From the UHGV virus genome UHGV-1421865: a DNA stretch of 64,000 bases; one strand, written 5' to 3'. The notes beneath the pieces are model-generated. The model was not told the DNA's origin. It saw only the letters and a program-made list of their open reading frames with translations, and searched no databases. Shown in pieces: positions 1,981-47,715 of this stretch (the stretch's first letter is position 1; the number at the start of each line of letters is the position of its first letter). The stretch comes from a virus. The position numbers and the translations under genes were made by a program.

Positions 1981-2125
1981 CTGATTTTGTCGGTTTCTGT
2001 TTTGCGTACTGGTATGCTAAACTGTGACGTCCACGTAAAGGCACTTTTTAGCCTCTCTAATGCACTCAAATGTACTGACCTTGGTAATACTAAGGTCCAA
2101 GAAAAATCGTGCGTTACAGGGCAAG
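1981..2125 (+). repeat. modular nested-palindromic intergenic repeat, copy A (5' module 'ctgattttgtcggtttctgttttgcgtactggta…acgtccacgtaaaggcacttt' plus nested hairpin module)
   Basis: Sequence family repeated at about 10 loci; see findings. Outer stem aatgcac/gtgcgtt encloses inner hairpin gacctt-ggtaatact-aaggtc. Predicted ORF 1987..2178 over it is probably spurious. Confidence 0.7.
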
Positions 2126-2192
2126 TTTTTAGATGGTTCTTATATATACAAAATAATAACGTAGTAGACTACAATTAGACTATACCAGAGTA

Positions 2193-5100
2193 TCAAATAG
2201 CCGCGACAGATGCAAACAAACTGGGTTCGTTTTCTGTATCATGGGTATCTGCTACCGACAGTGCCGTATACTTTTTGATGTTCTTATATATAGTATAGTT
2301 CTTTTCGAAGTCGATAGTTTCTTTTGTTTTCAATCGTTCGATACTATTATCGGCGGCTTTAAGCTTGTCGATGGCGTACGTAGTAGGAACAATAGTAGTC
2401 AGTACAGTATCGGGGACATCGGCTACTTTTTCTGCCGGCACATGATAACCCAGTGTACCTTCGATTTCGGCGATTTTGTCCTCTTTATTGTCGTTTTCTA
2501 AGTTAATAAGTTCTCCGATCACGCTATCTAAGAAGAAGTCTTTCGTTACGTCGGTACCCGCGTAGGTGTCTTTTACAAGATGTTTCGAATGCCATTCAAG
2601 TTCTAACTGGCTGAGTGTCACTGTTTTATTGCTACCTTTCTTGATTTCACAGATCACCATAAACATTTCCTTTACATACTCTCTAATCTTTTTAAGGAAC
2701 TTCTTATCGGCCACGGCGATACCTTTAATGCTATTGGCATAGTCGCATGAGAACTGGTCCAGTTTCTTCTTGAACTCGTCGCGGCTCAATTCGATACCTT
2801 CATTTTCTTTAATAAAGCCTTTAATTGCATTGTAGGTTTGCCATACCGGTACATCGAGTTTATTGCTCTTACGGGCCGCTTCGATACGAACCAGTTTAAC
2901 GATTCTATTTAGTTTAGTAAAGTTGATAAGTCCGTTCTTGCCGCAGCTGTGTTTATAAATGTCTTTAATAGTATCGATGGAATACTCTTTATAAAGCTCT
3001 TTTAAGATTTCACCGTTACGGTCGATGATGTCCAGTCTGTTGTTATATAGACCGAGTTGTTCCCGTTCTTTATCGTACTTTTTAAGTTTGAAGATGTCCA
3101 AATCACCCTTCTTCGTCGCAAAATAGTATTCGATATTATCTTCCGTCATGTGATCGAGGAGGGTAAATGTCTCAGATGTCACAGCCAGACGCATTTCGGA
3201 ACGAACACCGGCGATAAATTCGTTGAGCTGGTCGACCTTGTCTTCGGTCATTTGGTTGTTATTATAAGTAATATTCACTTCATAGCCGAAATAACGCATA
3301 TTCGACGCCAGTACAGGGTACTGTTTAGCATATACAGAATAACGTTCTTCGAAGATATTGAGCTTATAACCGGTGATGTTGATATAATAAAGCGATTCCT
3401 GTTCGTTGTATTTGATAAAGTTGTTGGCAGCTACCAAATTACGGATAATAGGATTAAAACGATATTCTTCACCGTTGCGCTTGATCATTTCATTGCACGC
3501 TTGAATAATGTCACGAGCGAACAGCACATCTTCTCTGTCGGCGTCCAGTTTGAGTTTTTGTACTTTATTATAGTCGATAGCAAAACCGTCCGCATCGTGT
3601 CCGGGTAGGAACAGTTTAACATACAAGTCGTTGCCTCTCAGGCGGTTAGCAAACTGTTCGATGTCCTGTGCAATCCACATTTCGTCGAAGTAAACAGAGA
3701 ATTGCCCTTTGTCCTTGATGTCGACACCGACAGAGAGGTAATTGGTACAGAAAATAATGTCGTTATCACCTACGGTTTGTGAGAAGTTGATGTCGTCCAT
3801 CGACTCTTCACCGTAGTTAGATTTCTTATAATAGAACATATTCAATTTACGACCGAATCCGTCGGCTTCCAGACACTGCTGTACCAACGACGTGATAATA
3901 GCCACATGGGTCTCTCCTTTGTTCGTCGGGAACAAGATCTTACGACCTGCTTTAATATCTTCTGCAATGGCTTTGGTGATTTCAATCACCTGTTCGCTCT
4001 TAGAATAGCAAACCGTTGTATCGAATTTCTTAATACGGTTATCCTCCTTTTGTACACGAATATGTTTAATACCTTGAAGGAATGTCATCTCGCCGGTCGG
4101 TGTGCCAGTCATTATTATGACTGGGATCTGCGACATAGTGAGCTTTTCGAGACACGTCGCCATCACCGGACGGTACGACGAAGTGAACAACAAGTGACTT
4201 TCGTCGAGTACGATATAGTCGAAGTTACTGTATTCGATGATATTGTTGCTGACATTAGCAAATTTATCGGGTGTCATCACCATCGACTTACGGGTATCGA
4301 GGAAATCGTCGAAACTCGGTTTCTTAGAACCGTAATAGTACAGCCATTCTTCGGACAATACGGGGTCGGCCTCAATCTTGGACTTGATTGTGGATGTAAA
4401 GGGCAGCACCATCAGGACGCGACCGCCCATTCGTTTTACCATTTCCGTCTTACCGTAACCGGCACCGGCCTCGATAAGTGTGATCTTACCGAGGTTCTTT
4501 ATAATATCGTCTTTAATGTCGGACAAGTATTCGGTAGCACTCAGGCGGAGTTCTACTTTATTGTCTGCCATATTGTCCGTAACGATGCGAGTAGGGTCGG
4601 TAACGGCATCCGCATTATTGATCTTTTCGGCCAATTCCGCCAGTGTCTCGTCAGAGGTAGTATCGTTATAACGAATTTCAAGACCGAATTGGTTGTTCAG
4701 CTCCTTGATCGCCCATTTCGATACCGGCTTGTTGTGTGTTGCAGCCGTCTTCACGTCACCGGCGAGTTCTCCCTTCGGTGTTTGAGGACACAGGGACATC
4801 ATCATAACAAGCGCCTTTTGTGCACCGTACAATGCGGTAAGGGTATTGGCCAGCTGCCAACGTTGTGCGTGTTTATAGTGACGTTTGTTATTTACGATAA
4901 CAGGACAGTCTACATCTGCATCAAATACTACATTTTCGATACTGATGTCGTCGACCGTGTTGTCCTTGCTGAACCATTCGTGTTTCTTAAATACCTCTTC
5001 AAGTACAGGATCGTTCAACCAACAAGCCAGGTACTTGTCGTTCAACGCCGCTGCTACATTATAAGGCAATGGTACGTCCACAAAGTTGGTAGACAAGAGA

Positions 5101-5915
5101 ATATCCTCGTCGTGCGCTAAGAAAATACCTTGTTGAGGCTTGCACATCGCCATGTCCATATATTTCAGAATATCATCTTCAGTATACCCCAGTTCGGTAG
5201 CGAACTCTCTGAGTACCAAATAGATAAACGAATACTTATGACGATAATTGCAAATAAATTCAGGTTCTTTTGAGACAGTGTAGTCGCTGCCTACGTCGAT
5301 TTTAGTCCAGATGTGGAGACCCGCGCCGGACGAAGAAGTCGATACACCCAAGAACCAAGTGTATTTATTCAGTTTATCAAAAAGAATCTGTTTCAGTCGC
5401 TTTGCAATGTCGAAATCTTTGATGTCGAGGTCGAAAATCTGCAGACCGTTCCATGTATTGTACGCCTCTGCCTTTACAGGTCGCAAATTCTGCGACGTAG
5501 AATACACAACTTTACGCAATTTCTTGTCGATACCCGCCGAGCTGTTGTTCATCATGTACTTGAACACACCGCCAAGGGCGATTAAGTCGCCGTTGTGTTG
5601 ATTTACACGATGGATAACGAGTGTAGCCAGGGTTTTATTCAAGAAATTGATCCAGGCCTCACGTTCATATACATTACATTTTGCAAAGTCGACATGACTA
5701 AATTGACTGTTATTGCTAGAACTAGCACTATTTTTATCGGTTGACGAACACATATTAAAGAAACTTAGGGTGTCAACCAGCGTATTTGTGTTATTTTTAT
5801 ACAACTCTAGCGCGGAATTCGCATTCATATTTGAATTGTTATTTTTATACGACTCTAATACGGAATTCGCATTCATAACAGATTTCGTGTCGGGGTTATT
5901 TAATGTGGAAATCAT
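2193..5915 (-). CDS. replicative primase-helicase: N-terminal archaeo-eukaryotic primase (PrimPol) domain fused to SF2-type helicase
   Basis: AEP motif I 'IFDLDIKD' (DxD) and motif II 'SSSGAGLHIWTKI' (sGxGxH). Helicase Walker A 'EAGAGYGKTEM', motif II 'VLDESHLL' and motif III 'MTGTPTGE'. 1240 aa. N-terminus carries a direct 16-aa repeat (MNANSVLESYKNNNSN / MNANSALELYKNNTNT). Confidence 0.75.
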   Translation of the reverse strand: MISTLNNPDTKSVMNANSVLESYKNNNSNMNANSALELYKNNTNTLVDTLSFFNMCSSTDKNSASSSNNSQFSHVDFAKCNVYEREAWINFLNKTLATLVIHRVNQHNGDLIALGGVFKYMMNNSSAGIDKKLRKVVYSTSQNLRPVKAEAYNTWNGLQIFDLDIKDFDIAKRLKQILFDKLNKYTWFLGVSTSSSGAGLHIWTKIDVGSDYTVSKEPEFICNYRHKYSFIYLVLREFATELGYTEDDILKYMDMAMCKPQQGIFLAHDEDILLSTNFVDVPLPYNVAAALNDKYLACWLNDPVLEEVFKKHEWFSKDNTVDDISIENVVFDADVDCPVIVNNKRHYKHAQRWQLANTLTALYGAQKALVMMMSLCPQTPKGELAGDVKTAATHNKPVSKWAIKELNNQFGLEIRYNDTTSDETLAELAEKINNADAVTDPTRIVTDNMADNKVELRLSATEYLSDIKDDIIKNLGKITLIEAGAGYGKTEMVKRMGGRVLMVLPFTSTIKSKIEADPVLSEEWLYYYGSKKPSFDDFLDTRKSMVMTPDKFANVSNNIIEYSNFDYIVLDESHLLFTSSYRPVMATCLEKLTMSQIPVIIMTGTPTGEMTFLQGIKHIRVQKEDNRIKKFDTTVCYSKSEQVIEITKAIAEDIKAGRKILFPTNKGETHVAIITSLVQQCLEADGFGRKLNMFYYKKSNYGEESMDDINFSQTVGDNDIIFCTNYLSVGVDIKDKGQFSVYFDEMWIAQDIEQFANRLRGNDLYVKLFLPGHDADGFAIDYNKVQKLKLDADREDVLFARDIIQACNEMIKRNGEEYRFNPIIRNLVAANNFIKYNEQESLYYINITGYKLNIFEERYSVYAKQYPVLASNMRYFGYEVNITYNNNQMTEDKVDQLNEFIAGVRSEMRLAVTSETFTLLDHMTEDNIEYYFATKKGDLDIFKLKKYDKEREQLGLYNNRLDIIDRNGEILKELYKEYSIDTIKDIYKHSCGKNGLINFTKLNRIVKLVRIEAARKSNKLDVPVWQTYNAIKGFIKENEGIELSRDEFKKKLDQFSCDYANSIKGIAVADKKFLKKIREYVKEMFMVICEIKKGSNKTVTLSQLELEWHSKHLVKDTYAGTDVTKDFFLDSVIGELINLENDNKEDKIAEIEGTLGYHVPAEKVADVPDTVLTTIVPTTYAIDKLKAADNSIERLKTKETIDFEKNYTIYKNIKKYTALSVADTHDTENEPSLFASVAAI
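5771..5866 (-). repeat. ~48-nt tandem direct repeat x2 inside 5' coding region of primase-helicase gene
   Basis: 'attgttatttttatac(a/g)actcta(g/a)(c/t)(g/a)cggaattcgcattcata' occurs twice in tandem. It encodes the duplicated N-terminal peptide. Confidence 0.7.
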
Positions 5916-6330: not shown

Positions 6331-8445
6331 ATGGAAGTTATTAAGCGAGACGGTCGAACACAGGATTTCGACGTTAATAAAATTAAGTTTGCTATAGAAA
6401 AAGCCGGTGTCGTAGACGGTACAAACGAGGTTATCGACGCTATATTAGACGTATTAGTACAGAAATACGGTACGGACGCACAAGTGCCCATCGAAGATCT
6501 CCAAGACATCATCGTAAAGGTACTTCGAAAGAACCATCGTAAACAAGCCAAGTTATATAAGGAATACGCCGACAATAGAACCAAGATACGAGACAGCAAA
6601 ATCAATAATTCGTATTATAATAGAATCTTTGAATTGATCAACGGCGTCTTAAACGATACGAGTACAGAAAATTCGAACAAGGACGCCAAGCAAATGCACG
6701 TTATCCGGGACTTGATCGCCGGTGAATTGTCAAAGAAGATGTATCGCGAACATGTAATGCCGGCCCAACTAATGGACTTGCACGACAAAGGTATCATTCA
6801 CGTTCACGACTGTGACTATCGATTGCAACCGGCGATGTCGAATTGTGGACTCGTTAATTTAGAAGACGTATTGCAGCACGGTACTGTAATGAACGGTAAG
6901 ATGATCGAGAAGCCTCATTCCCTCAGAACAGCCGCCAATATCGCCACACAAGTCGTCGCAGCCGTCGGTTCGAGTCAGTACGGCGGTATCACTTTTACCA
7001 TGACACATCTTGCACCGTTCGTAAAGATTTCTTCCGATAGAATATATAAAAGACTACGCGACCTAAATTTAGACGAGACTACTCTTGCTGCGTTGCACGA
7101 CAAAATGTTGACAGAAGAGATAGAAGAGTCTATCCAAACTATTAACTATCAGCTAAATACGATGTCTACTACAAACGGCCAGTCGCCCTTTATAACTATA
7201 TTCTGTTATGCCGACGAGGATCCCGAGTACAAACAAGAGACCGTACTACTCATCGAAGAACTGTTTAGACAACGTATTAAAGGAATGAAATCGCCGTCTG
7301 GACACGTTATCAATCCTACTTTCCCTAAGATAGTATATGTCCTCACCGAGTCCAATTTGGATCCGAAGTCAGAAGATTTCAAGACAACCTATCTCGCAGC
7401 ACAGTGTACATGTAAGCGAATGGTTCCGGACTATATGAGTGAGAAGAAAGCAAAGGAATACAAAGAAGGTTGTGTTATTCCCCCTATGGGCTGTCGCTCG
7501 TTCTTGTCGCCGTGGAAGAACAAAGACGGACAGTACCAGATCTACGGTCGTATGAACACCGGTGTTATTTCTATCAATCTTCCTTATATAGCACTTTCTT
7601 CCGATAACGTCGACGACTTTTATGAAAAGTTAGAATACCTGGTGGTATACATCTGCGAACAACAAAAGAAGATCCACGACAGTATTGCCAATTCACAAAT
7701 CGATATAGCACCTATCTTATGGAAATACGGTGTCTACGGTCGTGCCGCGGAAGGAACAATCAAACAATGTATCGATAACCTTAAATGTAGTGTTTCTGTG
7801 GGTTACATGGGTATCGCCGAGGCGGTAGAACGATTCGGTGTTCGTTATAATACAGAACAAGGTCACGAACTAGGTCTTGCTATTATAAAAAAACTTTTCG
7901 ATATTGTAACAGAACAAAAACAGAAATTAGGTATCTCGTTAGGACTGTACGGTACCCCTGCCGAGTCGTTGACGACAAAGTTTGCCCGTGCATGTAAGAA
8001 ATTTGATGTTATAGAGCATGTAAACGACAGAGACTATATCACGAATTCTTACCATATACCGGTAGAAACAGAAATCGACGGTTTCTCTAAAATTGATTTC
8101 GAAGCAGAATTCCAACGTTATTCTCATAACGGTGCTATCTCGTATATCGAAATGCCCGACATCAAGAACAACCCCGAGGCTGTCATCGAAGTACTTCGTC
8201 ATATATACGATAAAATAATGTATTGCGAGATCAATACGACCGGGTGTAGTACATGCTATGCGTGCGGCTACGAAGGTGAAATGAAGATGGGCGATCACAA
8301 TCATTTCGAATGTCCTAATTGCGGTAATACGAATCCGGAATTGTTAAATATCATCTATAGAACATGCGGGTACTTGGGAGAGTTCTCTCACGGTACTTCG
8401 AAAGGTCGTTGGGACGATATTAAGAACCGTGTAAAGCACTTTTAA
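6331..8445 (+). CDS. nrdD: anaerobic ribonucleoside-triphosphate reductase (class III RNR)
   Basis: C-terminal glycyl-radical motif 'RTCGYLG' preceded by a Zn-ribbon 'CSTCYACG…CPNCGN'. Length 704 aa and overall similarity to NrdD. Confidence 0.9.
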   Translation: MEVIKRDGRTQDFDVNKIKFAIEKAGVVDGTNEVIDAILDVLVQKYGTDAQVPIEDLQDIIVKVLRKNHRKQAKLYKEYADNRTKIRDSKINNSYYNRIFELINGVLNDTSTENSNKDAKQMHVIRDLIAGELSKKMYREHVMPAQLMDLHDKGIIHVHDCDYRLQPAMSNCGLVNLEDVLQHGTVMNGKMIEKPHSLRTAANIATQVVAAVGSSQYGGITFTMTHLAPFVKISSDRIYKRLRDLNLDETTLAALHDKMLTEEIEESIQTINYQLNTMSTTNGQSPFITIFCYADEDPEYKQETVLLIEELFRQRIKGMKSPSGHVINPTFPKIVYVLTESNLDPKSEDFKTTYLAAQCTCKRMVPDYMSEKKAKEYKEGCVIPPMGCRSFLSPWKNKDGQYQIYGRMNTGVISINLPYIALSSDNVDDFYEKLEYLVVYICEQQKKIHDSIANSQIDIAPILWKYGVYGRAAEGTIKQCIDNLKCSVSVGYMGIAEAVERFGVRYNTEQGHELGLAIIKKLFDIVTEQKQKLGISLGLYGTPAESLTTKFARACKKFDVIEHVNDRDYITNSYHIPVETEIDGFSKIDFEAEFQRYSHNGAISYIEMPDIKNNPEAVIEVLRHIYDKIMYCEINTTGCSTCYACGYEGEMKMGDHNHFECPNCGNTNPELLNIIYRTCGYLGEFSHGTSKGRWDDIKNRVKHF

Positions 8446-8760: not shown

Positions 8761-8785
8761 TATAGTCTACTTATGAAACTGTGGA

Positions 8786-8872
8786 AAATCTCGCCTGTAT
8801 CGCGTTATTTTTCTTTAGCCTTAGTACTACTAAGGTCAACTAATTTGGACGCGATACGGACCAAATAAACGC
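8786..8872 (-). repeat. nested-palindromic repeat, copy B (hairpin module only, reverse orientation)
   Basis: Outer arms cctgtatcgcg / cgcgatacgg enclose inner hairpin agcctta-gtactac-taaggtc. Matches the reverse complement of module 2 of the other copies. Confidence 0.65.
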
Positions 8873-8968
8873 TGTTTATGACGATTCTAGGATTGTACTG
8901 TAGGTTATGAAAAGTATAAGTCATCGAAATTCAACAAAAATAAGACTAAAATAACAACAAAACAATAT

Positions 8969-11365
8969 ATGAAACAAGAAAATATAGAACGACCTTGGTG
9001 GTTGAACGAAGAGTCGGAAACAATCCTTAAACGGGGTTACTTTTTAGAAGGTGAAGAATTAGAAGACGCGTTGGAACGTATCTGTTCGTCGACAGCTCGT
9101 TATCTCGGCGATGTAAAAGATCCCTTTATAAAAGACAAATTCAAATATATCATTCGTAAAGGTTGGATGTCGTTGTCGTCTCCTGTATGGGCCAATGCCG
9201 GGACAGACAGAGGACTACCTATATCGTGTATGGGTCTGCATGTCGACGATAATATGAAAAGTATTATAGCGAAACACGGAGAAACTGCGATGCACACTAA
9301 ACAAGGTGCCGGTACATCGGGCTATTTCGGTGACTTACGAGGTCGCGGTGCAGCTATCACAAACAACGGCGAATCGTCCGGTGCTGTATCTTTTATGCGC
9401 ATGTGGGACACTATGATGCAGGTTGTGAGTCAGGGATCTTGTTATGTAGAAGGTACAGAGGTACTTACCGACAAAGGCTTCAAAGATTTCAGAGACGTTG
9501 ACCCTACTAAGGACAAGATTGGTCAAATAACAAAAGATAATGAACTAATATATACTACTGTCGGTGGTTATGAATTAACAAAAAAAGAATATAACGGCGA
9601 TGTAATTACATTCAAAGACGTAAACGATTCTTTTGAAATTACAGTGACACCGAATCATAGAATGATGTTTACCGATGACGGCAGCGGATTCAAAGAATGT
9701 AAGGCGGAAGATTTAGACATCGGTGATAATTGGGATTTTCACCTTGTTCCGACAAGACATTTAGGTCTAAAAGACGCTTACTTGAACATTGCACGAGAAT
9801 TAGAATCGTTAGGTGACGGTTATAATGCTTTTATATATGACATTTTACAACTTCCGGACGATGAAAACCTACTGGTAGCGTCTGTAACACGTATACCGAA
9901 TGAACTTGTAGAAAAAATCAATGTTGCTTTTATTAAACAAGGATTTTCTACTGAGTTATATAAACAAGACTCTTATTATAATTTAGTTTACAATGTAAAG
10001 CGCAATACGGTATCGAGTAAGTATATACAAAAGCATTCAAATCCATATAATGGTATGGTATATTGTTGTATTGTTCCAGAAGGTCGTATATTAGTACGTT
10101 ATAAAGGAAAAACATTAGTGTGCGGTAATACACGTCGCGGAAGTTTCGCAGCGTACCTACCTATCGACCACCCCGACATCGACGAGTTTATTCGTATTAG
10201 AAGTATCGGGCATGATATTCAGACCCTGTTCCATGCCGTTTGCGTTCCCGACTACTGGATGCAGGAAATGATCGACGGCGATAGAGATAAACGAAGTATA
10301 TGGGCGAAGGTATTAAAATCGAGACAACAAACGGGTCTTCCTTATATATTCTTTTCCGATAATGTGAACAATAATAAACCGGATATATATAAAGCGACAA
10401 ATTCAGCAATTCGTCATAGCAACCTATGCGCAGAAATCGCCTTACCCGATAACGAAAACGAAACGTTTATTTGTTGTCTTTGTTCTATCAACCTCGCACT
10501 GTACGACGAGTGGATAAAAGAATGTCCCGAGCTACCGGAATTGGCAACTTATTTCTTAGACGGTATCATATCGGAATATATAGACAAAACAAAAGACGAT
10601 CCTTATATGGCGGCGGCACGTAATTTCGCTATTCGTCATCGCGCTATCGGTATCGGTGTAATGGGTTGGCATTCGTATCTACAAAGTAATATGATAGCGT
10701 TCGAGTCGTTACAGGCGAATTTGTTGACAAATAAGATATTCCGTCGTATTTCCGAAGGTACCAAGAAAGCGTCGAAGGAATTAGCCGAACTACTCGGTCC
10801 CGCTCCGATTTTCGACGAGAAAATGCCCGACGGTTCTTTATATAACGGTATTAAATACAGAAACACCACTACCATGGCTATTGCACCAACGACGTCGAGC
10901 AGTGCTATTTTAGGACAGGTATCGCCCGGCATTGAACCGTATATGAGTAATTACTATAAAGTAGGTCTCGCCAAGGGTAACTTTATGCGTCGGAATAAAT
11001 ATCTCCAACGTCTATTAAAAGAAAAAGACCGCGATACAGACGAAGTATGGCGATCTATCATGGAACACCAAGGTTCGGTACAACATCTCGACTTTCTTTC
11101 AGACGACGAAAAAGCGGTATTTAAGACATTTAGAGAAATAAGCCAGCACGATTTAGTCACACAAGCCGGTATACGGCAGAAATATGTCGACCAGGCACAG
11201 TCGTTGAACTTGTGCATTCCACCATCGCTACCGGTAAAAGAAGTAAACGCACTGATAATCTACGCCTGGCAATCTGGTATTAAATCGTTATATTATCAAC
11301 GCAGCGTTTCTGTATCGAAAGAGAACTCGTCACAGGTAACGGTATGCTCGTCTTGTGAGTCTTAA
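8969..11365 (+). CDS. ribonucleotide reductase large (catalytic) subunit, interrupted by an in-frame intein
   Basis: Catalytic 'RHSNLCAEI' motif. Conserved 'VSQGS…RRGSFAAYLPIDHPDIDEF' block is split by a 230-aa insert. C-terminal Cys pair 'CSSCES'. Extein ~568 aa. Class I versus class II cannot be decided from the window, and no NrdB was seen. Confidence 0.8.
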   Translation: MKQENIERPWWLNEESETILKRGYFLEGEELEDALERICSSTARYLGDVKDPFIKDKFKYIIRKGWMSLSSPVWANAGTDRGLPISCMGLHVDDNMKSIIAKHGETAMHTKQGAGTSGYFGDLRGRGAAITNNGESSGAVSFMRMWDTMMQVVSQGSCYVEGTEVLTDKGFKDFRDVDPTKDKIGQITKDNELIYTTVGGYELTKKEYNGDVITFKDVNDSFEITVTPNHRMMFTDDGSGFKECKAEDLDIGDNWDFHLVPTRHLGLKDAYLNIARELESLGDGYNAFIYDILQLPDDENLLVASVTRIPNELVEKINVAFIKQGFSTELYKQDSYYNLVYNVKRNTVSSKYIQKHSNPYNGMVYCCIVPEGRILVRYKGKTLVCGNTRRGSFAAYLPIDHPDIDEFIRIRSIGHDIQTLFHAVCVPDYWMQEMIDGDRDKRSIWAKVLKSRQQTGLPYIFFSDNVNNNKPDIYKATNSAIRHSNLCAEIALPDNENETFICCLCSINLALYDEWIKECPELPELATYFLDGIISEYIDKTKDDPYMAAARNFAIRHRAIGIGVMGWHSYLQSNMIAFESLQANLLTNKIFRRISEGTKKASKELAELLGPAPIFDEKMPDGSLYNGIKYRNTTTMAIAPTTSSSAILGQVSPGIEPYMSNYYKVGLAKGNFMRRNKYLQRLLKEKDRDTDEVWRSIMEHQGSVQHLDFLSDDEKAVFKTFREISQHDLVTQAGIRQKYVDQAQSLNLCIPPSLPVKEVNALIIYAWQSGIKSLYYQRSVSVSKENSSQVTVCSSCES
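9440..10129 (+). mobile_element. intein (230 aa) inserted at the QGG|RRGA hotspot of the RNR
   Basis: Starts with Cys in 'CYVEGTEVLT' (block A). Block B 'ITVTPNHRMMFTDDG' (TxxH). Ends '…LVCGN' with +1 Thr. Insert is AT-richer than flanks. Single LAGLIDADG-like 'LESLGDGYNAF' motif. Penultimate residue is Gly rather than His. Confidence 0.6.
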
Positions 11366-11397
11366 TACGTCGACTAAAATAATAACATCTAAAAATT

Positions 11398-11480
11398 TGC
11401 CCTGTATCGCGCTGTTTTTTGTTAAGGCTTGGAGTACCAAGGTCACTACATTTGGACGCGATACAGGACAAATATGGTAT
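11398..11480 (-). repeat. nested-palindromic repeat, copy C (hairpin module)
   Basis: cctgtatcgcg…cgcgatacagg outer stem of 11 bp. Inner hairpin aaggcttgg-agtac-caaggtc. Confidence 0.65.
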
Positions 11481-11587
11481 GGAACACACAGCGTTCCACT
11501 ACGCTGTTACCAAAGAATCGATTCTAAGTTTATACATGTCAGTATACAAAACATAAACCTGCGAATCGCTAACAAAATAGCCCATTA

Positions 11588-11705
11588 AAGTAACACCGTG
11601 TGGGGCACGTTGTGTGTGCCGTAACACTGTGCGGGACACGTTGTGTGTACCATCTTGATGCTTTGCATCAAATTGTTCACAAAGTGAACATAACTGATTT
11701 AGTCT
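11588..11705 (+). repeat. 'triple-hairpin' module with a tandemly duplicated first hairpin
   Basis: Consecutive triloop hairpins cgtg-tggg-gcacg (x2, ~30-nt tandem duplication), gatgc-ttt-gcatc and gttcac-aaa-gtgaac. Near-identical to 26578..26652. Confidence 0.65.
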
Positions 11706-11761
11706 GTAAAGCGTACTATAATAAGATGTGTAAATGTTGAACTTTTTTATATATAAAAACT

Positions 11762-35162: not shown

Positions 35163-35235
35163 ACACATCGTTACTACATTTAATAATCTGTAACGAATTC
35201 TATCTACAGTTCCATTTTATACCACCATCGAAACC

Positions 35236-35418
35236 CTTAGAGAATCTCTCCTGTATCGCATTATGATACATACAACGTGCCCCACACGGTGTTATTTTTC
35301 TTAACCTTACACATACTAAGGCTGAATCGTCCGGCCGCGATACAGGACGAATATGGTATCTTTATGGACGTGTTATGATTCTACTGTAGGCTGTATAAAA
35401 CAGAAACGTTGAAAATAG
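35236..35418 (-). repeat. nested-palindromic repeat, copy E (reverse orientation, with single cgtg-tggg-cacg hairpin inserted inside the outer stem)
   Basis: cctgtatcgcat…acaacgtgccccacacggtgtt…ccttacacatactaaggct…gcgatacagg…then the reverse-complemented 5' module. Confidence 0.65.
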
Positions 35419-35576
35419 TATAAAAAATAAGTTGTACCGAATGTCACCACTCAGTACAACTCTTTATTTGTGTACCACTGTACACTTCCCATTCTCATCT
35501 TCTCTCTTATTTAATATAGTCTATTATAACAACAAAATCACATTTTTGCTACACTATAAATGTACGATATTCAAAC

Positions 35577-35729
35577 GTACAAAAATCTGTCCTCTAACGC
35601 ACGATTTTTATTTGACCTTAGAGTACCAAGGTCAGTGCATTTGAGTGCGTCAGAGAGCCTTAAAAGTGCCAAAGAATCGATTCTACGTTTGTACATACCA
35701 GTACACAAAACAGAAACCATCGAAATCAG
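35577..35729 (-). repeat. nested-palindromic repeat, copy F (reverse orientation, full)
   Basis: Reverse complement matches 'ctgatttcgatggtttctgttttgtgtactggta…ggcacttttaaggctctctgacgcactcaaatgcactgaccttggtactctaaggtcaaataaaaatcgtgcgttagagg'. Track ORFs 35560..35814 and 35571..35777 are probably spurious. Confidence 0.7.
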
Positions 35730-35736: not shown

Positions 35737-36402
35737 TCACGGTTTATAACAAACAAATGTTCTCGATTCCATCTCATTTGCCCACGCGGGTATAACCCGT
35801 CCGTGTTGTTCTAACGCATCGCCTTCGTACAGGAATTCACCTACTCTGTATTCTTTTATATCGACAAAACCCATTGTACGCAGCATCTGTATTATCGTAG
35901 GGCAGTCGTATATCGAAAGATGACCCCACATGTGCATGAAATTATTGATGACGACAGATTTCGGTAATGTCTCAGTAGTATTAAAGAATGTATTATAAAT
36001 CCCTCCGTAAAATTTCGAATGAAACTCAATATATCGCCGGTTGTTTTCAGTGTCGGAATTGTTGTATAAATCGATAAGAAATTCCATTGTAGGACAGGTA
36101 AGAACAAAAGTGCCGCCTTGTTTTAAGGTTCTATGGACTTCACAGAGCATATTGATCTGTCTGGGCAAGTCGAGGTGTTCGAACATGTGTTCCGAAAAGA
36201 CAATATCGAAATAATTGTCTATATAAGGGAACTTTTTAGTCGCGTCTAAGAATTCTACACCGTCAAGAGACGGTTCTAAGTCGGTGTTTATCCAACCGTC
36301 AAGCGGTGTCTTACCGCAGCCTATATTTAGCCTATTTTGCATCGAATCTGGGTATTGTTCGTTGGTTGTTGTATTTGGTAGACTGCCCTCGTTTAATAAC
36401 AT
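35737..36402 (-). CDS. class I SAM-dependent methyltransferase
   Basis: 'LNIGCGKTPLDGWINTDLEP' (motif I) and 'FDIVFSEHMFEHL'. The likely true start is the internal Met near 36342. Confidence 0.7.
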   Translation of the reverse strand: MLLNEGSLPNTTTNEQYPDSMQNRLNIGCGKTPLDGWINTDLEPSLDGVEFLDATKKFPYIDNYFDIVFSEHMFEHLDLPRQINMLCEVHRTLKQGGTFVLTCPTMEFLIDLYNNSDTENNRRYIEFHSKFYGGIYNTFFNTTETLPKSVVINNFMHMWGHLSIYDCPTIIQMLRTMGFVDIKEYRVGEFLYEGDALEQHGRVIPAWANEMESRTFVCYKP

Positions 36403-39985: not shown

Positions 39986-41251
39986 ATGATTAAGGTTTTA
40001 GAACAACTTGGCTTTAGTGACATCGTCGACGGTGCCGAGCCACTGAGCGAAGCCGGTAAGGAGCTAATCCGTAACTACCGTAGCTTCCTCTTTAACAACG
40101 ACGCAACATGTAATGTTGTTAATCAGTTCGTTTCCGAAGCGTCGAAGTATGCTTACGACCCCGGTGTCGCACAGACTCTGGAGAAGGTAACAGACTATCT
40201 TTCGGAGAATCGTATCTCGTGGCAGTTGGCGAGTGCATGTGAGAATTTCAACACACAAAACAACGCATTCGGTTATGTTGCGAAGACGGGTATAGAGAAG
40301 GTTCGTACACTTCTCGAAATGGGAGAATACGATGTTATCTCTTATATTAAGAGCGGGGCGTTGAAGGGTGTCCAGTACATTCCTGAATTTCGTAGTATCT
40401 GTCGTCAAGTGATCAATGAACAGGTCGCCGAAAAGAATTGTTACAACTATTCCCTCAGTCACCCTGTATCGTACGTCATCACCAATGAGTCAGGTGACAT
40501 CTTTTTCCAAGTAAATCATAATAATTATAAGATTTGTGAAGGTCGTGTAGAAAAGATTGGTCATATTGACAACGAAACGTACAACTATATCAATGCTATT
40601 ATCGAAAACTTCAAGCGTGAAGGTAATACGTTGGTCTACGAGTACAAGAACAGTTTCGGTGAACAGGTACGGTACGAAATCCTCGACGAGTCAATCACCA
40701 TTACGAAAGGACTCAAAAAGTCACAAACTTTCGAAAGCCGTGTCGATATGATGGAATTCGTTAATATGTTGTCTAAGACAATGCCGACGAACGAAAAGCT
40801 CGATTTCTTGAATAAGGCCGCCGCCGTAGCGACGGTGTTTGAGAATTCTGCAAATATCGCTGTCCTCGACAATGTTCGTGTTATCCAAACGCAACAAGGT
40901 TTCGCCGGTGCCATTATCGAAGGTGCCGACAATGTTAACTTGACGGTATATCGTTCTAAGGCGGGTAAGGCATCGAAGAACTTTGACTTTATCATTGAAG
41001 CTATCCAAGAAGTCACCTCGCTGAGTGGTGTCGACCTCACCTACGAGTACAATAAACGAATCTCCGAAGACTGTGCTAAGCAAAATGATACAGAGGCACA
41101 ACAGATGTACGAACAAGTAGCGGCTACAAAGAAAGCCGAAATGGACGTTCGTAAGAAGAAGATTGCGATGTTGGCAGAGTCTTATAAGAACGACCCCGTT
41201 AAATTGGCGTTGCTCAATAGCATTTCTCGCGACATCAAAGCATTAGAATAA
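39986..41251 (+). CDS. hypothetical protein (421 aa)
   Basis: Long ORF. A terminator follows it. Confidence 0.5.
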   Translation: MIKVLEQLGFSDIVDGAEPLSEAGKELIRNYRSFLFNNDATCNVVNQFVSEASKYAYDPGVAQTLEKVTDYLSENRISWQLASACENFNTQNNAFGYVAKTGIEKVRTLLEMGEYDVISYIKSGALKGVQYIPEFRSICRQVINEQVAEKNCYNYSLSHPVSYVITNESGDIFFQVNHNNYKICEGRVEKIGHIDNETYNYINAIIENFKREGNTLVYEYKNSFGEQVRYEILDESITITKGLKKSQTFESRVDMMEFVNMLSKTMPTNEKLDFLNKAAAVATVFENSANIAVLDNVRVIQTQQGFAGAIIEGADNVNLTVYRSKAGKASKNFDFIIEAIQEVTSLSGVDLTYEYNKRISEDCAKQNDTEAQQMYEQVAATKKAEMDVRKKKIAMLAESYKNDPVKLALLNSISRDIKALE

Positions 41252-41285
41252 GATTTTGCGATTCATATTTTGTTTTATATAATCG

Positions 41286-41319
41286 GAGACTGTACAGTTA
41301 CTTGTACAGTCTCTTTTTT
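41286..41319 (+). terminator. rho-independent terminator
   Basis: gagactgtacag-ttact-tgtacagtctc (11-12 bp stem) followed by TTTTTT. Confidence 0.7.
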
Positions 41320-41341
41320 GTAGTATTTTAGTGTGATTTCT

Positions 41342-41488
41342 ACAGTTTCCGTTTCGCGCACTGGTATGTTGAATCCTAACATCGTCATAAAGGCACTTTT
41401 AAGGCCCTCTAACGCACTCAAATGCACTGACCTTATACATACTAAGGTCAAAGAAAAATCGTGCGTTATAGAGCAAATTTTCTAAGGT
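41342..41488 (+). repeat. nested-palindromic repeat, copy G (full)
   Basis: agtttccgtttcgcgcactggta…acatcgtcataaaggcacttttaag + ccctctaacgcac…gaccttatacatactaaggtc…gtgcgttatagag. Track ORF 41461..41658 is probably spurious. Confidence 0.7.
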
Positions 41489-41640
41489 TTTCACAAGTAC
41501 GTCAAAATACGAAAAAGACGCACCCTATTCGCATAGAGTACGTCTATATAGATCTACAAAAGTTTTCAAGTTCAACTATATATTATATTGTTATTTTGCA
41601 AGTTGTTAAATTTGAAAACTCTCACGTCTTAATTTGTGTC

Positions 41641-41979
41641 TCAATTTATAAAAAGTAGTTTAATTAGGTCTAGTCCGATAGTTCTGATATTCTCTTCTGT
41701 GATTCTATCCATAGCGTCCATGAGATATTCGTTGAACTCCGATACAGTCATCCGTTTCAGTACTTTGTCATTTGCATTATAAGCATCTGGATAGTATATC
41801 CAAGAATAGTCGTCACGGATACCTTCTTTTACGTCGTCAAAAAACTCGTAATCATAATTGTCTATCATATATTTTATAATAGACTTGTACGTCTTACTGT
41901 CCATACCTTCCAGTTCTCTGTTGTATGTCTTGTCCATCCAAACAATATGGTCGACGTATACTTTTAATTTCTGTTTCAT
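41641..41979 (-). CDS. hypothetical protein
   Basis: 112-aa ORF. Confidence 0.4.
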   Translation of the reverse strand: MKQKLKVYVDHIVWMDKTYNRELEGMDSKTYKSIIKYMIDNYDYEFFDDVKEGIRDDYSWIYYPDAYNANDKVLKRMTVSEFNEYLMDAMDRITEENIRTIGLDLIKLLFIN

Positions 41980-42033
41980 ATACTATATAGTACGTGTTAT
42001 ATACACAAATCAATTCAGATTGAGCCTAATTTC

Positions 42034-42200
42034 GACGGTTTCTGTTTTGCGTACTGGTAGACACAAACCTATTTGACCTCATTACCTCGGTAACGTCCTC
42101 ATAAAGGCACTTTAGAACTCCTCTGTCGCGTCCAAATACACTGACCTTGGTACTATCAAGGCTAGAAGATTTTAACGCGATACAGGCGAGATTTTCTTTG
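42034..42200 (+). repeat. nested-palindromic repeat, copy H (full)
   Basis: gacggtttctgttttgcgtactggta…acgtcctcataaaggcactttag + ctctgtcgcgtcc…gaccttggtactatcaaggct…acgcgatacagg. Confidence 0.7.
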
Positions 42201-42210
42201 GTTTTACAAC

Positions 42211-42681
42211 TCAACGCAGCTGTAATCGGAATTCGATTGGCATACAGTCGCAACCGTCGAAGGTAACCCAACTTATATGTTTTGCACAAGGCTTCCACTC
42301 ACTCAGATCACATTTTAATTTCGAACAGCCGTGGAACGCAAAATCAAGATTTTCTACATTTCTAACATCCCAATTGGATAAGTCACAGTTGAAGTGCATT
42401 TGACCGGAAAACATTCTATACATGTTTGTTACGTTGCTAACGTCCCACTGGTCGATTTTGATGTCTCTAATATAGAACACAACACTATCACCGACATAGA
42501 CTTTATGGTAAGACCTCCTGAACAAATACGACATGTCAGTAATTTTCGACGTGTCAATGAAGTTCAAATCAGCATCCGGACCTTGACGTTTTATTTCTTG
42601 TTCTATAATAGATCTGAGTTCGTCTTTCGACGTCGGTTGTATGCTGAGACTTTTACTATTTGATGTGATATGTAGTACCAT
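42211..42681 (-). CDS. DUF285-repeat paralog family member (short)
   Basis: 'MVLHITSNSKSLSIQPTSKDELRSIIEQEIKRQGPDADLNFIDTSKITDMSYLF'. ~3 repeats. Confidence 0.65.
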   Translation of the reverse strand: MVLHITSNSKSLSIQPTSKDELRSIIEQEIKRQGPDADLNFIDTSKITDMSYLFRRSYHKVYVGDSVVFYIRDIKIDQWDVSNVTNMYRMFSGQMHFNCDLSNWDVRNVENLDFAFHGCSKLKCDLSEWKPCAKHISWVTFDGCDCMPIEFRLQLR

Positions 42682-47147: not shown

Positions 47148-47462
47148 TTAATTATTAAATTCGAATGTTACGGTATTTCCTTCGACTGTAACGGTACCAT
47201 CTTCGATTTTATAGACTACTTTATTACGCTTTGCATCGTTGCTTACTTGCTTTATAATAGTATACGATTGTGCAAAACCATCGCGTTCCATCAAGATAAT
47301 TTCTTGTTTTGTAATCTTGATTTTATACTCTGTTCTGTTGTTAGTGTATACTTCCGATTGTTTGTTGACCTTAAAATAGGTCACAGTCTGCGTCATATCG
47401 TTTGCCATCAGCGTACCGACCGACGAAAGTCCGAATAAAAGTGTAAATAGTACTTTTCGCAT
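47148..47462 (-). CDS. small secreted protein (signal peptide)
   Basis: 'MRKVLFTLLFGLSSVGTLMA'. Confidence 0.45.
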   Translation of the reverse strand: MRKVLFTLLFGLSSVGTLMANDMTQTVTYFKVNKQSEVYTNNRTEYKIKITKQEIILMERDGFAQSYTIIKQVSNDAKRNKVVYKIEDGTVTVEGNTVTFEFNN

Positions 47463-47570
47463 TGTTGTTTATTTTCTTGTTCGTTATTATTTTCAGTATA
47501 TTATATAGTGTGTTTTATAGAACAAATCAGTACGAAACAACTATTTTGCACGCATTTTAGTCCAGATTTT

Positions 47571-47715
47571 GACGGTTTCTGTTTCTGGTACTGACGTGTA
47601 AATATCTGACGTCCTCGTAAAGGCACTTTTAAGGCTCTCTAACGCACTCAAATGTAGTGACCTTACCAACACCAAGGTCAAAGAAAAATCGTGCGTTATA
47701 GAGCAAATTTTTAGT
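47571..47715 (+). repeat. nested-palindromic repeat, copy I (full)
   Basis: gacggtttctgtttctggtactgacg…acgtcctcgtaaaggcacttttaag + ctctctaacgcac…gaccttaccaacaccaaggtc…gtgcgttatagagcaa. Track ORF 47541..47762 is probably spurious. Confidence 0.7.

Follow-up and report, generated by a model that had tools for sequence, protein, structure and literature searches.

The ten loci recognised in a preliminary description of the window, by which we mean the whole 64,000-nt stretch of DNA analysed, are copies of a single non-coding, palindromic intergenic repeat, and these copies exchange sequence with one another and coincide with breakpoints and indels that separate related phages. Because they constitute dispersed 150-bp patches of homology, we hypothesize that the family is a lineage-specific recombining repeat whose copies spread by homologous recombination and serve as crossover points, a reading to which we give about an even chance. 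Copies fill the spacers at the boundaries of transcription units, following a stop codon or intrinsic terminator, preceding a predicted sigma-70-like promoter or lying between a convergent pair of terminators. According to the hypothesis they would not transpose; homologous recombination and gene conversion between copies would spread, homogenise and reshuffle them, an exchange that the T4-type replication-recombination machinery carries out efficiently, and crossovers at copies would let neighbouring gene cassettes be gained, lost or exchanged among related phages.

The repeat family and its anatomy

An nhmmer profile from a six-copy seed recovered ten copies in the window (E=1e-51 to 2e-08), and a full-window search with filters off, using a covariance model built for the hairpin module, returned the same ten only (102 to 21 bits), the next unrelated match scoring 14 bits. 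These are the ten loci of the preliminary description, which had proposed a covariance model as a check. A diagnostic pattern gave 6 matches against 0.00 expected by chance. Another 25 copies were found in related oral-metagenome phage contigs, while no copy was detected in INPHARED phages, in IMG/VR or in 185,579 bacterial genomes, where the diagnostic pattern had four matches, none of which scored with the covariance model. Rfam gave no match in the window at gathering thresholds, and over c8-c9 nothing but chance matches (E at least 1.4); no family in Rfam matches the repeat, even at E<=10. All true copies reside in phage contigs and all 35 are intergenic, at a density of about one copy per 6 kb in the window. 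The carrier is a very large T4-like phage of the human mouth, whose genome extends for more than 120 kb beyond the window.

The canonical unit, of 158 nt, consists of a 5' module, a hypervariable 7-mer and an 85-nt nested hairpin. The 5' module opens with the phage's own -35-like box, CTGATTTTG, and the hairpin has two nested stems separated by a conserved 10x10 internal loop, with outer arms about 50 bp apart. The internal-loop sequences (TCAAATG.. / AAAGAAAAAT) and GGTTTCTGTTTTG are near-invariant, and the loops are variable; this near-invariance, which recombination by itself leaves unexplained, points to a function that depends on the sequence. A conserved T-run, CAAATTTTT, begins 3 nt past the outer stem on one strand only, and the flanks carry the family-consensus motifs TATTTTAG and GGTTTTGAT. 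Outer arms of class II read TGTATCGCG / CGCGATACA. Optional inserts of 21 nt, of 25-31 nt (CACA) and of 37 nt (a loop insert) occur at fixed points. As shown in Table 1, and contrary to the earlier description, no copy consists of the hairpin module alone: c3 has the complete unit and an insert besides, the 5' module of c2 is degenerate, and c5 begins at 26455, its 3' stem arm being displaced beyond a 66-nt insertion.

Table 1. Copies of the repeat and adjoining features in the window. Refined core coordinates were taken from the alignment of copies; CM, covariance model.
Feature	Position	Strand	Anatomy	Setting and relatives	Score or source
c1	1982-2139	+	Class I, canonical 158 nt	Antisense to minus-strand neighbours (helicase stop 2193, next gene start 1893)	nhmmer E=1.2e-51; CM 98.3 bits
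c2	8775-8932	-	Class II hairpin, degenerate 5' module	Antisense; 22-36 nt 5' of nrdA-like gene start (8969)	nhmmer E=3.9e-18; CM 80.4 bits
c3	11382-11569	-	Class II, 188 nt; ~30-nt insertion within module 2	Antisense; starts 17 nt past nrdA-like stop (11365)	nhmmer E=1.6e-22; CM 70.8 bits
Accessory modules	11592-11691		Tandem CACA hairpins 11592-11616 and 11623-11647	By c3	Fuzzy motif search
38-nt double hairpin	11654-11691		100% identical to 26612-26649	By c3	Fuzzy motif search
c4	26234-26391	+	Class II outer stem; variant, fully compensated inner stem TAGGCTT/AAGCCT (fold -31.1 kcal/mol, z=-4.8)	Sense; begins at stop of DUF285 gene 25721-26230; first of tandem pair	nhmmer E=4.2e-45; CM 78.4 bits
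c5	26455-26672	+	Class II; 66-nt insertion (CACA hairpin 26581-26605, double hairpin 26612-26649), directly followed by outer-stem 3' arm 26652-26662		nhmmer E=1.7e-22; CM 48.1 bits + 16 bits for displaced 3' arm
c6	35236-35418	-	Class II; 29-nt CACA insertion (35269-35293), same point as in c5	Missing from phage E, extra DUF285 gene there instead (synteny with L034)	nhmmer E=1.6e-08; CM 20.9 bits
c7	35572-35728	-	Class I	Sense; abuts stop of methyltransferase-like gene 35737-36402; positional orthologue in phage E is reciprocal nearest relative, 85%	nhmmer E=1.1e-46; CM 95.3 bits
c8	41334-41491	+	Class I	Two canonical terminators converge on it; same place occupied in phages E and B	nhmmer E=3.1e-49; CM 98.1 bits
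c9	42027-42205	+	Class II; 21-nt insert (42069-42090) separating modules 1 and 2	Antisense; 6 nt from stop of DUF285 gene 42211-42681; class I copies, only 55% identical, at same position in E and B (three-way alignment)	nhmmer E=6e-43; CM 74 bits
c10	47564-47721	+	Class I	Antisense; between terminator 47750-47787 (-) and promoter-like site 47500-47530 (-)	nhmmer E=5.1e-49; CM 102.4 bits
Canonical intrinsic terminator	35429-35462	-	15 pairs + T-run	Between c7 and c6, directly 5' of c6	
Canonical terminator	41285-41314	+		Of gene 39986-41251; directly 5' of c8	Terminator scan
Canonical terminator	41516-41545	-		Of gene 41641-41979; 25 nt 3' of c8, convergent	
Canonical terminator	47750-47787	-		Of gene 47809-48387; between gene and c10	
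Sigma-70-like promoter-like site	1918-1947	-	CTGATT-N17-TATATA	Would fire away from c1 5' end	
Promoter-like site	11694-11722	+		By c3	
Promoter-like site	41984-42013	-		By c9	
Promoter-like site	47500-47530	-		By c10	

It is scarcely believable that the copies are small protein-coding genes and that the open reading frames overlapping them are real. In many copies one frame, on either strand, does stay open for 60-66 codons and would encode a recurrent peptide (...KALLRLSDALKCSDLGTTKVKEKSCV...), but variation has no 3-nt periodicity (0.43, 0.30 and 0.36 bits for the three codon phases), 1-nt indels shift the frame in w7, L007a/b, L026b and L038, about one third of the copies have a stop and no upstream start codon, and the class II haplotype radically alters the 'peptide' while base pairing is kept. 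These four observations effectively refute the coding reading, and the overlapping reading frames are artefacts, as had been presumed.

Exchange between copies and the ends of homology

Copies at the same position are mostly not each other's nearest relatives: w9 and L034c are 55% and w4 and L021 50% identical, within flanks that are 78-90% identical. L029a and L022a, at different loci, share 99% identity from ATTTGTACG to GGGCAAATTTT, a 152-nt tract with sharp ends. The PHI test gave p=0.0005, with 73% of site pairs incompatible. It speaks against the recombination reading that the position of a copy was kept in six of seven testable cases across 10-20% nucleotide divergence. Together with the breakpoints found at copies, the PHI result and the low identity of same-position copies fit the earlier suggestion of a REP-like element or recombination site.

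Comparison of the copies with breakpoints in related genomes, also proposed in the preliminary description, showed that the ends of homology blocks and gene indels often coincide with copies. In the window, homology ends at 35423 (the 5' end of c6), at 26266 (within c4) and at 2165 (29 nt from c1), and in relatives at L008 2600, L033 1605/1656 and L014 11110 / L026 7788 (exact 3' end). DUF285 genes make up indels next to c5 and c6; the former copy and the DUF285 gene at 26699-27148 are both absent from phage Y, and phage B has a tandem pair of copies at a site where phage E has one. Neighbouring copies are often direct repeats around cassettes, as are c2/c3, which enclose the nrdA-like gene, and c8/c9. 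These comparisons suggest that recombination at the copies may have caused the observed indels. Some 30% of all intergenic sequence falls within 50 nt of the end of a copy, and so do about 6 of 10 breakpoint boundaries, a coincidence that is statistically not strong since most breakpoints are intergenic anyway, and none of the indels compared is a clean case of two copies collapsing to one hybrid.

A non-autonomous mobile element, whether a MITE or a 'PATE' of the IS200/IS605 type moving as a single-stranded DNA hairpin, is an unlikely source of the same pattern; it would depend on an enzyme from another part of the phage genome or from the host, and would insert preferentially next to terminators. 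The sharp-ended 152-nt tract at two unrelated loci, the constant 158-nt length, the subterminal hairpins, the lack of coding capacity and the intrinsic terminators abutting many copies would all agree with it, and repeated insertion at favoured sites could also leave copies unlike their positional orthologues. MITEs include the Correia/NEMIS elements, and rare phage MITEs have been catalogued (PMC11602168); like them, the present repeat is small, non-coding, multi-copy and intergenic, folds into a long hairpin and has near-identical copies at unrelated loci. The marks of transposition are nevertheless missing. Local alignment of the 5' end with the reverse complement of the 3' end scored 4-8 in 28 copies, the same as shuffled controls, so that there are no terminal inverted repeats of the 10-15 bp or more that define a MITE; target-site duplications of 2-10 bp are likewise lacking, the motifs shared at the ends (TATTTTAG, GGTTTTGAT) being family consensus and not copy-specific repeats; and no clean filled-versus-empty pair of sites was found among the five related genomes W, E, B, X and Y. 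Copies differ from one another in patches, as conversion tracts would give, a Pfam scan of 55 window proteins revealed neither a transposase nor an integrase or homing endonuclease, and the element is absent from the bacterial genomes searched. The MITE likeness drawn in the preliminary description is therefore not borne out.

Recombining repeats have precedents in phages of this type. The statement that no such family is annotated in T4-like phages overlooks the promoter-early and promoter-middle stem-loop cassettes (PeSL/PmSL) of T4-type phages (Arbiol et al. 2010, PMC2839356; Comeau et al. 2014, PMC4122927), for which homologous recombination between copies and excision of mini-circles have been proposed (PMC2839356). 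Both families are dispersed, conserved intergenic stem-loop motifs at transcription-unit boundaries of T4-type genomes, adjoin indels and replacements between close relatives (here at c1, c4, c6, L008, L033b, L014 and L026a) and have direct copies flanking small cassettes, and the direct repeats c2/c3 and c8/c9 have the geometry of PeSL mini-circle excision (PMC2839356). In the order of transcription, a sigma-70-like promoter-like site comes after the hairpin at c1, c3, c9 and c10, as in a PeSL, and the -35-like box at the 5' end of the element recalls degraded PeSLs retaining only the -35 (PMC4122927). The differences are as clear. Published PeSLs have no sequence similarity to this repeat, whose unit is longer (~158 nt), with two nested stems, a 10x10 internal loop, a separate 5' module and optional sub-modules at fixed points. 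A PeSL has its stem-loop immediately upstream of a sigma-70-like early promoter (-35, N17, -10) and ends, in fixed orientation, in the Shine-Dalgarno sequence and start codon of the next ORF, whereas here the repeat holds a -35-like box only, the -10, Shine-Dalgarno sequence and start codon lie outside it, and a copy may point either way relative to the gene downstream or even lie between convergent terminators. Because its copies swap sequence and often sit where the gene content of relatives differs, we interpret the family as related to the PeSL shuffling cassettes, though larger and free in orientation, and not as an element of a wholly new kind.

The ERIC/IRU (127 bp), BIME/REP and pneumococcal BOX elements are mosaic intergenic repeats of bacterial chromosomes, present in tens to hundreds of copies per megabase-sized genome, for which mRNA stabilisation or protein binding has been proposed and which evolve partly by conversion. 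With them the present family shares imperfect palindromes of 100-200 bp, located between genes in either orientation, inside or at the end of operons, and a modular construction in which optional insertions take up defined internal sites, without terminal inverted repeats or target-site duplications. It differs in being phage-borne, in its density and in its absence from the bacterial genomes searched, and no RAYT-type partner as for REP is known for it. The family is best read as the phage counterpart of both the T4-type PeSL cassettes and these bacterial mosaic repeats.

Folding, orientation and transcriptional setting

The nested palindrome reported earlier is real. In the alignment, 93.6% of stem cells pair, compared to 28-50% when the partners are slid as a control; the outer stem was recovered independently by RNAalifold; and minimum-free-energy z-scores fall between -3.8 and -7.1 for the element strand and between -3.0 and -5.3 for the opposite one. 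Hairpin stability ranges from -24 to -34 kcal/mol. Double changes occur in 7 of 19 stem pairs. The outer stem, which exists as two fully compensated haplotypes (class I and class II), has four double-compensated pairs. The covariation noted previously thus holds as far as compensation is concerned, while the independent events number only about two, the class I/II outer-stem haplotypes and the inner stem of c4. Chimeric inner stems are present in L029b, L034a, w3 and L026b, and unpaired chimeric ones exist. As proof of an RNA, covariation does not serve, since both strands fold about equally (mean energy of the window copies -28.7 vs -27.7 kcal/mol) and a DNA palindrome would compensate likewise. 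The compensated arms and the conserved internal loop show that the nested hairpin is maintained by selection on the nucleic acid itself. Because both strands fold, it can form as a DNA cruciform or a single-stranded DNA hairpin, or within read-through RNA of either sense, and its function may be, for example, protection of RNA 3' ends, insulation or protein binding.

Copies lie in both orientations irrespective of gene direction, as had been stated: relative to flanking genes, five of the window copies are antisense, four sense and one between convergent genes, and a crude ORF caller applied to all copies gave 9 sense, 8 antisense, 10 convergent, 0 divergent and 9 unclassifiable. Their location at operon boundaries was also confirmed, but the association with DUF285 genes is weak, only 4-5 of the ten copies neighbouring one and long DUF285 arrays lacking a copy.

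Divergent promoter-like sites adjoin c1, c3, c9 and c10; they are no part of the conserved unit, lie on the strand opposite to it, and from their sequence may be active promoters; c4-c8 have no adjacent site of this kind. Their -35 region is formed by TGATTTT, which is enriched 6.5-fold in non-element intergenic DNA, and the phage encodes its own sigma-70-family factor. As the element itself opens with a TGATTTT box and consists of two nested inverted repeats with conserved non-complementary spacers, it is conceivable, if distinctly unlikely, that the copies are DNA binding sites whose function is independent of orientation. The protein, from phage or host, would regulate the early or middle promoters nearby, serve as a nucleoid or insulator protein, or be a structure-specific recombinase that recognises folded sites resembling attC. 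Half of the copies have no promoter nearby, however, c8 lies between terminators, and outer arms ~50 bp apart would be unusual for a dimeric operator. Integron attC sites carry R''/R' boxes (RYYYAAC / GTTRRRY), lie at the 3' ends of cassettes and are used by the IntI-type tyrosine recombinase. Like them, the repeat is an imperfect palindrome in which an unpaired spacer separates the outer from the inner paired box and the terminal loop varies; class I arms read YYYAAC / GTTRRR and so agree with the R boxes at 6 of 7 positions. Class II arms lack the AAC/GTT and do not fit, orientation is not fixed, no integrase domain is encoded in the window, and copies do not mark every cassette 3' end, the DUF285 arrays without copies between successive genes indicating that the elements are not per-cassette sites.

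A multi-copy small-RNA gene, each copy being a separate transcription unit that runs from near GATTT to the outer hairpin and T-run, with hypervariable segments giving each copy its own target specificity, is to be judged distinctly improbable as well. Same-strand terminators upstream and convergent ones downstream resemble the insulation of an independent unit, most clearly at c8, which keeps its place between two terminators in three phages; the T-run is conserved on one strand only, invariant single-stranded segments adjoin hypervariable ones, and a TATTTT(A/G)G motif precedes many copies by ~10 nt. Stem cells contain 80 G-U vs 35 A-C, a mild one-strand bias that would fit RNA, and the element strand forms outer-stem duplexes that are more stable by 2.5 kcal/mol. 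Yet no consistent -35/-10 pair lies upstream, TATTTT is missing in a third of the copies, the CTGATTTTG box has no -10 at a workable spacing of 16-18 nt within the conserved unit, the strands of the window copies fold equally well, the T-run starts 3 nt past the stem, and Rfam provides no match. In addition, several copies span the whole gap between co-directional genes in either orientation, and must be read through within an mRNA.

Such read-through transcripts could use the hairpins as cis elements, that is, as terminators, 3'-end stabilisers or RNase III-type processing hairpins, a role we regard as very unlikely to be the main one. They would then be comparable to REP stabilisers or to the intergenic RNase III processing sites of T7; the latter have two helices separated by an internal loop, which the stable hairpin of the repeat resembles, and c1, c3, c4 and c7 begin 0-56 nt from a stop codon with no intervening terminator. 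The internal loops are A-rich or U-rich depending on orientation, though, and both orientations are equally common; operon-internal copies cannot be efficient terminators. An intrinsic terminator has a G+C-rich stem and short loop directly followed by a U-tract; no U-tract adjoins the stem of the repeat, and the terminator scan called none of the element hairpins, but called separate canonical terminators beside them. Such terminators lie on the same strand directly 5' of c6, c8, L034a, L037a, L007a, L022a and L009, with copies downstream of them, and/or in convergent orientation 25-40 nt 3' of a copy. Being flanked so often by canonical terminators, the copies are not themselves the terminators, and the bidirectional terminator envisaged in the first description is not supported as their primary role. 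The hairpin sequence of the terminator at 41285-41314 also flanks a paralogous copy in L037.

The unit and its distribution

A profile built from six copies recovered ten copies at the ten loci proposed in the preliminary description (E=1e-51 to 2e-08; c1–c10, also called w1–w10), all remaining matches being weaker reverse-strand echoes of the palindromes, and a hairpin-module covariance model, applied to the 64 kb with filters off, returned the same ten at 102–21 bits and no eleventh copy. Copies scored 70–100 bits on the correct strand vs. 16–37 bits on the opposite strand, and the element therefore has polarity. In the alignments the canonical unit is of strikingly constant length, 158 nt. 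Often preceded by the flank motif TATTTT(A/G)G, it begins with module 1, (G/A)ATTT-yGAyGG-TTTCTGTTTTG and a weak small hairpin, which is followed in c9 and in the metagenomic copies L021 and L037b by an optional 21-nt insert; module 2 consists of TAAC, a hypervariable 7-mer and TAAAGGCACTTTTAAGG. After an optional 'CACA' hairpin of 25–31 nt comes the 85-nt hairpin module, made up of an outer stem (11–14 bp), a conserved 10x10 internal loop (TCAAATGnAn/AAAGAAAAAT), an inner stem (TGACCTT/AAGGTCA) and a variable apical loop, and the unit closes with the tail GGGCAAATTTTT-nnn-GGTTTT. The CACA hairpin was seen nine times, each time within a copy or in contact with one. Its insertion point in c5 and c6 is identical, directly 5' of the 3' arm of the outer stem, and for this reason c5 had initially been placed too far right. 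Copies reduced to the hairpin module, which had also been claimed, do not occur among the ten.

Two smaller observations concern insertions. A 38-nt double hairpin, CTTGATGCTTTGCATCAAATTGTTCACAAAGTGAACAT, is present in two 100% identical copies, both directly following a CACA hairpin (AACACCGTGTGGGrCACGTTGTGTG), within c5 at one site and outside c3, in opposite relative orientation, at the other; it apparently represents an additional small module, moving with the main element or into it. Further, the metagenomic copy L033 1415–1536, orthologue of L008 2447–2531, carries in the apical loop of its inner hairpin a 37-nt insertion with two mini-hairpins (TTCACTGACGTGAA and CAACGCGTAGCGTTG), so that this loop tolerates large insertions.

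The window (38.9% G+C) comes from a very large T4-like phage whose other proteins here, besides the Gp23-family capsid protein, include a 1104-aa sheath, prohead protease, NrdD, a class I/II ribonucleotide reductase (RNR) large subunit, DEAD-box helicase, FolD, dUTPase and lysozymes; ARAGORN detected no tRNA or tmRNA in the window. Sequence past the window edges, sought through exact protein matches, lengthened the genome by only about 3 kb. Human oral metagenome contigs of up to 0.2–1 Mb bear capsid genes identical to that of the window, INPHARED held no close DNA-level relative, and the capsid shares 35–38% identity with its counterparts in Tenacibaculum PTm1, Sphingomonas PAU and Lak phages. 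When metagenomes were scanned with a pattern that recognises six of the ten window copies, 36 loci were obtained, 15 of them from related phages with 25 further copies by profile and covariance-model searches; the same searches found no copy in the other 21. In 185,579 bacterial genomes the pattern gave four chance matches, all failed by the covariance model. No match was obtained in 50,697 phage records, whether by megablast with 20 kb of sequence or by blastn with a single copy, nor in IMG/VR by two pattern scans, and 15 kb of a distant IMG/VR relative (L005; sheath 55% identical in amino acids) held neither a copy nor an analogous repeat, the site orthologous to c10 included. Rfam returned nothing at gathering thresholds for the window or in a permissive scan of c8–c9.

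Features of the window
Feature	Position	Strand	Remark
Copy c1	1982-2139	+
Copy c2	8775-8932	-
Copy c3	11382-11569	-
Copy c4	26234-26391	+
Copy c5	26455-26672	+
Copy c6	35236-35418	-
Copy c7	35572-35728	-
Copy c8	41334-41491	+
Copy c9	42027-42205	+
Copy c10	47564-47721	+
38-nt double hairpin	11654-11691		outside c3
38-nt double hairpin	26612-26649		within c5
Terminator hairpin GAGACTGTACAGTTACTTGTACAGTCTC	41286-41313
Promoter-like motif	15157-15185, 11694-11722	+
Promoter-like motif	61738-61766, 1918-1947, 47500-47530, 41984-42013	-
Motif CAGATTATTAA(A/G)T(G)TA	34006-34021, 35175-35190, 51780-51795	-
Major capsid protein, Gp23-family	52988-54784		Pfam E=3e-31
NrdD, anaerobic (glycyl-radical)	6331-8445
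RNR large subunit, aerobic-type	8969-11365
Prohead protease/DUF445 gene	55438-57351		637 aa
84-nt repeats in that gene	55904-56323		4-5 in tandem
DUF285 genes/arrays	15230-17366, 20650-21405, 25721-27148	+
DUF285 genes/arrays	27237-31965, 34154-35023, 42211-42681, 57425-63784	-
Open frame antisense to capsid gene	53009-54718	+	569 codons
Open frame antisense to helicase gene	3906-5120	+	404 codons

Exchange between copies and gene differences at their positions

Cumulatively, our findings are best explained by a recombining intergenic repeat family, whose copies would exchange sequence through gene conversion and would act as homology patches for the gain and loss of cassettes. We compared the window with contigs ERZ651108 NODE-4 and NODE-28 (E), BNJU01003715 (B) and small contigs (X and Y), whose syntenic parts are 77–97% identical to it; these comparisons rest on ~150 kb of related sequence and on crude gene calls for the fetched loci. 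Copies at the same position in different phages are mostly not mutual closest relatives: w7/L034b is the only reciprocal best match, and w9 is 55% identical to L034c (outer-stem class II vs. class I) and w4 50% identical to L021, with flanks at 78–90%. Two copies of E that lie at unrelated loci, L029a and L022a, match at 99% identity over the stretch from ATTTGTACG through GGGCAAATTTT. The variable segments assort freely, with 73% of informative site pairs incompatible and a PHI statistic lower than 99.95% of permutations.

Homology blocks between phages end at window positions 35423 (the 5' end of c6), 26266 (within c4) and 2165 (29 nt from c1), and in the fetched loci at L008 2600, L033 1605/1656 and L014 11110/L026 7788 (the copy's exact 3' end). 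At the position of c6, E instead has an extra DUF285 gene; Y has one copy where the window carries c5 and the DUF285 gene 26699–27148; and B has a tandem pair at the position of a single copy in E. That copies mark breakpoints, as the preliminary description had raised, is thus suggestive from these alignments: block ends and gene differences do coincide with copies, but when only intergenic DNA is considered the association is not statistically strong. Adjacent copies in the window are in many cases direct repeats of one another: c2 and c3, which enclose the nrdA-like gene, c4/c5, c6/c7 and c8/c9/c10. A single-strand mobile element is an unlikely account of the family; terminal inverted repeats, target duplications and clean empty sites were all sought at the copies and none was found, and a scan of the window proteins gave no transposase, integrase or homing endonuclease.

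Gain and loss of cassettes via homologous copies has been put forward for the promoter-early stem-loop (PeSL) cassettes of T4-type phages, where mini-circles have provided partial demonstration (PMC2839356, PMC4122927). The present family is not PeSL by membership, because the -10, Shine-Dalgarno and ATG of the PeSL unit are all missing, copies occur in both orientations, and the repeat, which contains a nested hairpin and optional sub-modules, is 2–3x larger. Its build is closer to the bacterial ERIC, BIME and BOX elements, from which it differs in being phage-borne and absent from bacterial genomes. The PeSL idea is hereby extended in three ways, to a much larger unit, to freedom of orientation and to a modular build resembling ERIC/BIME. 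Huge uncultivated phages are mosaics, and to our knowledge little is known of how their accessory gene sets are reshuffled. The set of this phage includes dozens of DUF285 surface-repeat genes, and for this oral lineage of 'jumbo' T4-like phages the repeat family supplies sequence-defined candidates for crossover points, while the covariance model can tag the lineage in oral metagenomes.

Pairing, compensation and folding of the hairpin module

The nested palindrome noted earlier is real: 93.6% of cells in the hairpin-module alignment pair, vs. 28–50% with slid partners, and double changes occur at 7 of 19 pairs, in 20 cells, which none of 500 shuffles reached. RNAalifold predicted the outer stem unaided from the hairpin module alone, and gave no structure for the full 359-column alignment because of its insert columns. 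When arms were exchanged between copies, the outer stem became weaker, at -18.1 instead of -21.0 kcal/mol; on the element strand not one of 5000 permutations attained the native mean, and the corresponding fraction for the other strand was 0.0004. The inner stem was unaffected. Hairpin modules folded at energies between -24 and -34 kcal/mol, and their z-scores lay between -3.8 and -7.1 for the element strand and between -3.0 and -5.3 for its complement. The compensatory stem changes described earlier are present but reduce to about two events, namely the split into outer-stem haplotypes class I (CTGACGCAC/GTGCGTTAG) and class II (TGTATCGCG/CGCGATACA), four double changes apart, and the inner stem of c4 (TAGGCTT/AAGCCT); inner stems are chimeric and unpaired in w3 and in the metagenomic copies L029b, L034a and L026b. 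Given these pairing, compensation and folding data, structure is selected, and it may act as RNA, single-stranded DNA or cruciform.

In the stems, 80 alignment cells are G-U and 35 are A-C, a mild bias that we did not accept as a basis for choosing the strand, being unsupported by the folding energies of the window copies (strand means only 1 kcal/mol apart). Also set aside were a marginally supported long-range pairing of the 5' TyGAyGG segment with the hypervariable 7-mer (native vs. swapped duplex -5.0 vs. -4.4 kcal/mol, p=0.016) and the weak small hairpin of module 1 (63% paired, p~0.04).

Long open frames run through both strands of the copies. A coding role is ruled out by variation that lacks 3-nt periodicity and concentrates in the apical loop and 7-mer, by one-nucleotide indels between copies, and by the absence of a start codon from many of them; the track ORFs overlapping copies are artefacts, as had been suspected, and these calls should be removed from the annotation.

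Terminators, promoter-like sites and possible functions

All copies are intergenic. Within the window, five are antisense, four sense and one is placed between convergent genes. A crude ORF caller applied to the entire set scored 9 copies as sense, 8 as antisense, 10 as convergent and none as divergent, and could not classify 9. Canonical intrinsic terminators stand on the same strand directly 5' of c6, c8, L034a, L037a, L007a, L022a and L009, and on the converging strand 25–40 nt 3' of c8, c10, L034a, L008, L007a/b, L026b and L029b, so that c8 is enclosed by two; such hairpins were found by inspection in the 3' flanks of L014, L037a and others. Some copies occupy the entire gap between co-directional genes, in either sense, and must sometimes be read through. 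With canonical terminators beside them and such read-through, the elements are not the phage's terminators, and the bidirectional terminator entertained earlier is not supported as their primary role. The terminator hairpin GAGACTGTACAGTTACTTGTACAGTCTC recurs at L037 5526–5553 and 5747–5774, on both sides of one copy with loops inverted, and at L034 11850–11877; some terminators thus also behave as dispersed repeats.

Six of seven testable sites retain their copy across 10–20% nucleotide divergence, and this, together with almost invariant unpaired segments, argues for an additional sequence-specific function. A small-RNA gene or a protein-binding site each has a low probability. We likewise consider it improbable that the copies are functional structured nucleic acids in their own right, either a multi-copy small RNA of the phage in which a protein would bind the invariant portion (nested stems, A-rich internal loop and GGUUUCUGUUUUG), with the hypervariable 7-mer and apical loop as copy-specific guides, or folded single-stranded sites of a dedicated, hitherto unseen cassette-exchange system of huge phages; consistent with it are the juxtaposition of near-invariant and hypervariable segments, the flanking terminators, the kept positions and the mild G-U bias. 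The near-invariant unpaired segments offer a defined target for binding and transcript-mapping work.

A promoter-like site, CTGATTT(T)G-N15-17-TATAAT, lies 25–60 nt from the 5' end of c1, c3, c9, c10, L007b, L029b and more, firing away from the copy. The wider motif, (C/T)TGATTT(T)G-N15-17-TATAAT, has a TGn extension in some instances; the one beside c9 ends ~6 nt before the ATG of gene 41641–41979, which suggests a leaderless or very-short-leader mRNA. Module 1 opens with the TGATTTT box, for which element-free intergenic DNA shows a 6.5-fold enrichment; no -10 was found at a workable distance from the module-1 box, and no internal promoter was consistent across copies on either strand. The motif CAGATTATTAA(A/G)T(G)TA, found upstream of three minus-strand genes (33954, 35023 and the sheath gene 51723), is possibly a further regulatory box. 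Among 35 scanned ORFs of the phage, one codes for a sigma-70-family factor (Pfam Sigma70_r2 E=6e-09, Sigma70_r4 E=1e-04); the conserved intergenic boxes might be connected with its promoter specificity.

The repeat landscape of the window is dominated by DUF285 (BspA-like 25-residue repeat), with several dozen paralogous genes built of 75-nt repeats (50 copies of this period) in tight arrays with 5–40 nt spacers; gene number varies between related phages. The 84-nt repeats of the prohead protease/DUF445 gene correspond to 28 codons. Two RNR large subunits lie side by side, the aerobic-type gene being bracketed, cassette-like, by the direct copies c2 and c3. The open frames antisense to the capsid and helicase genes are unusually long, probably an effect of codon composition.
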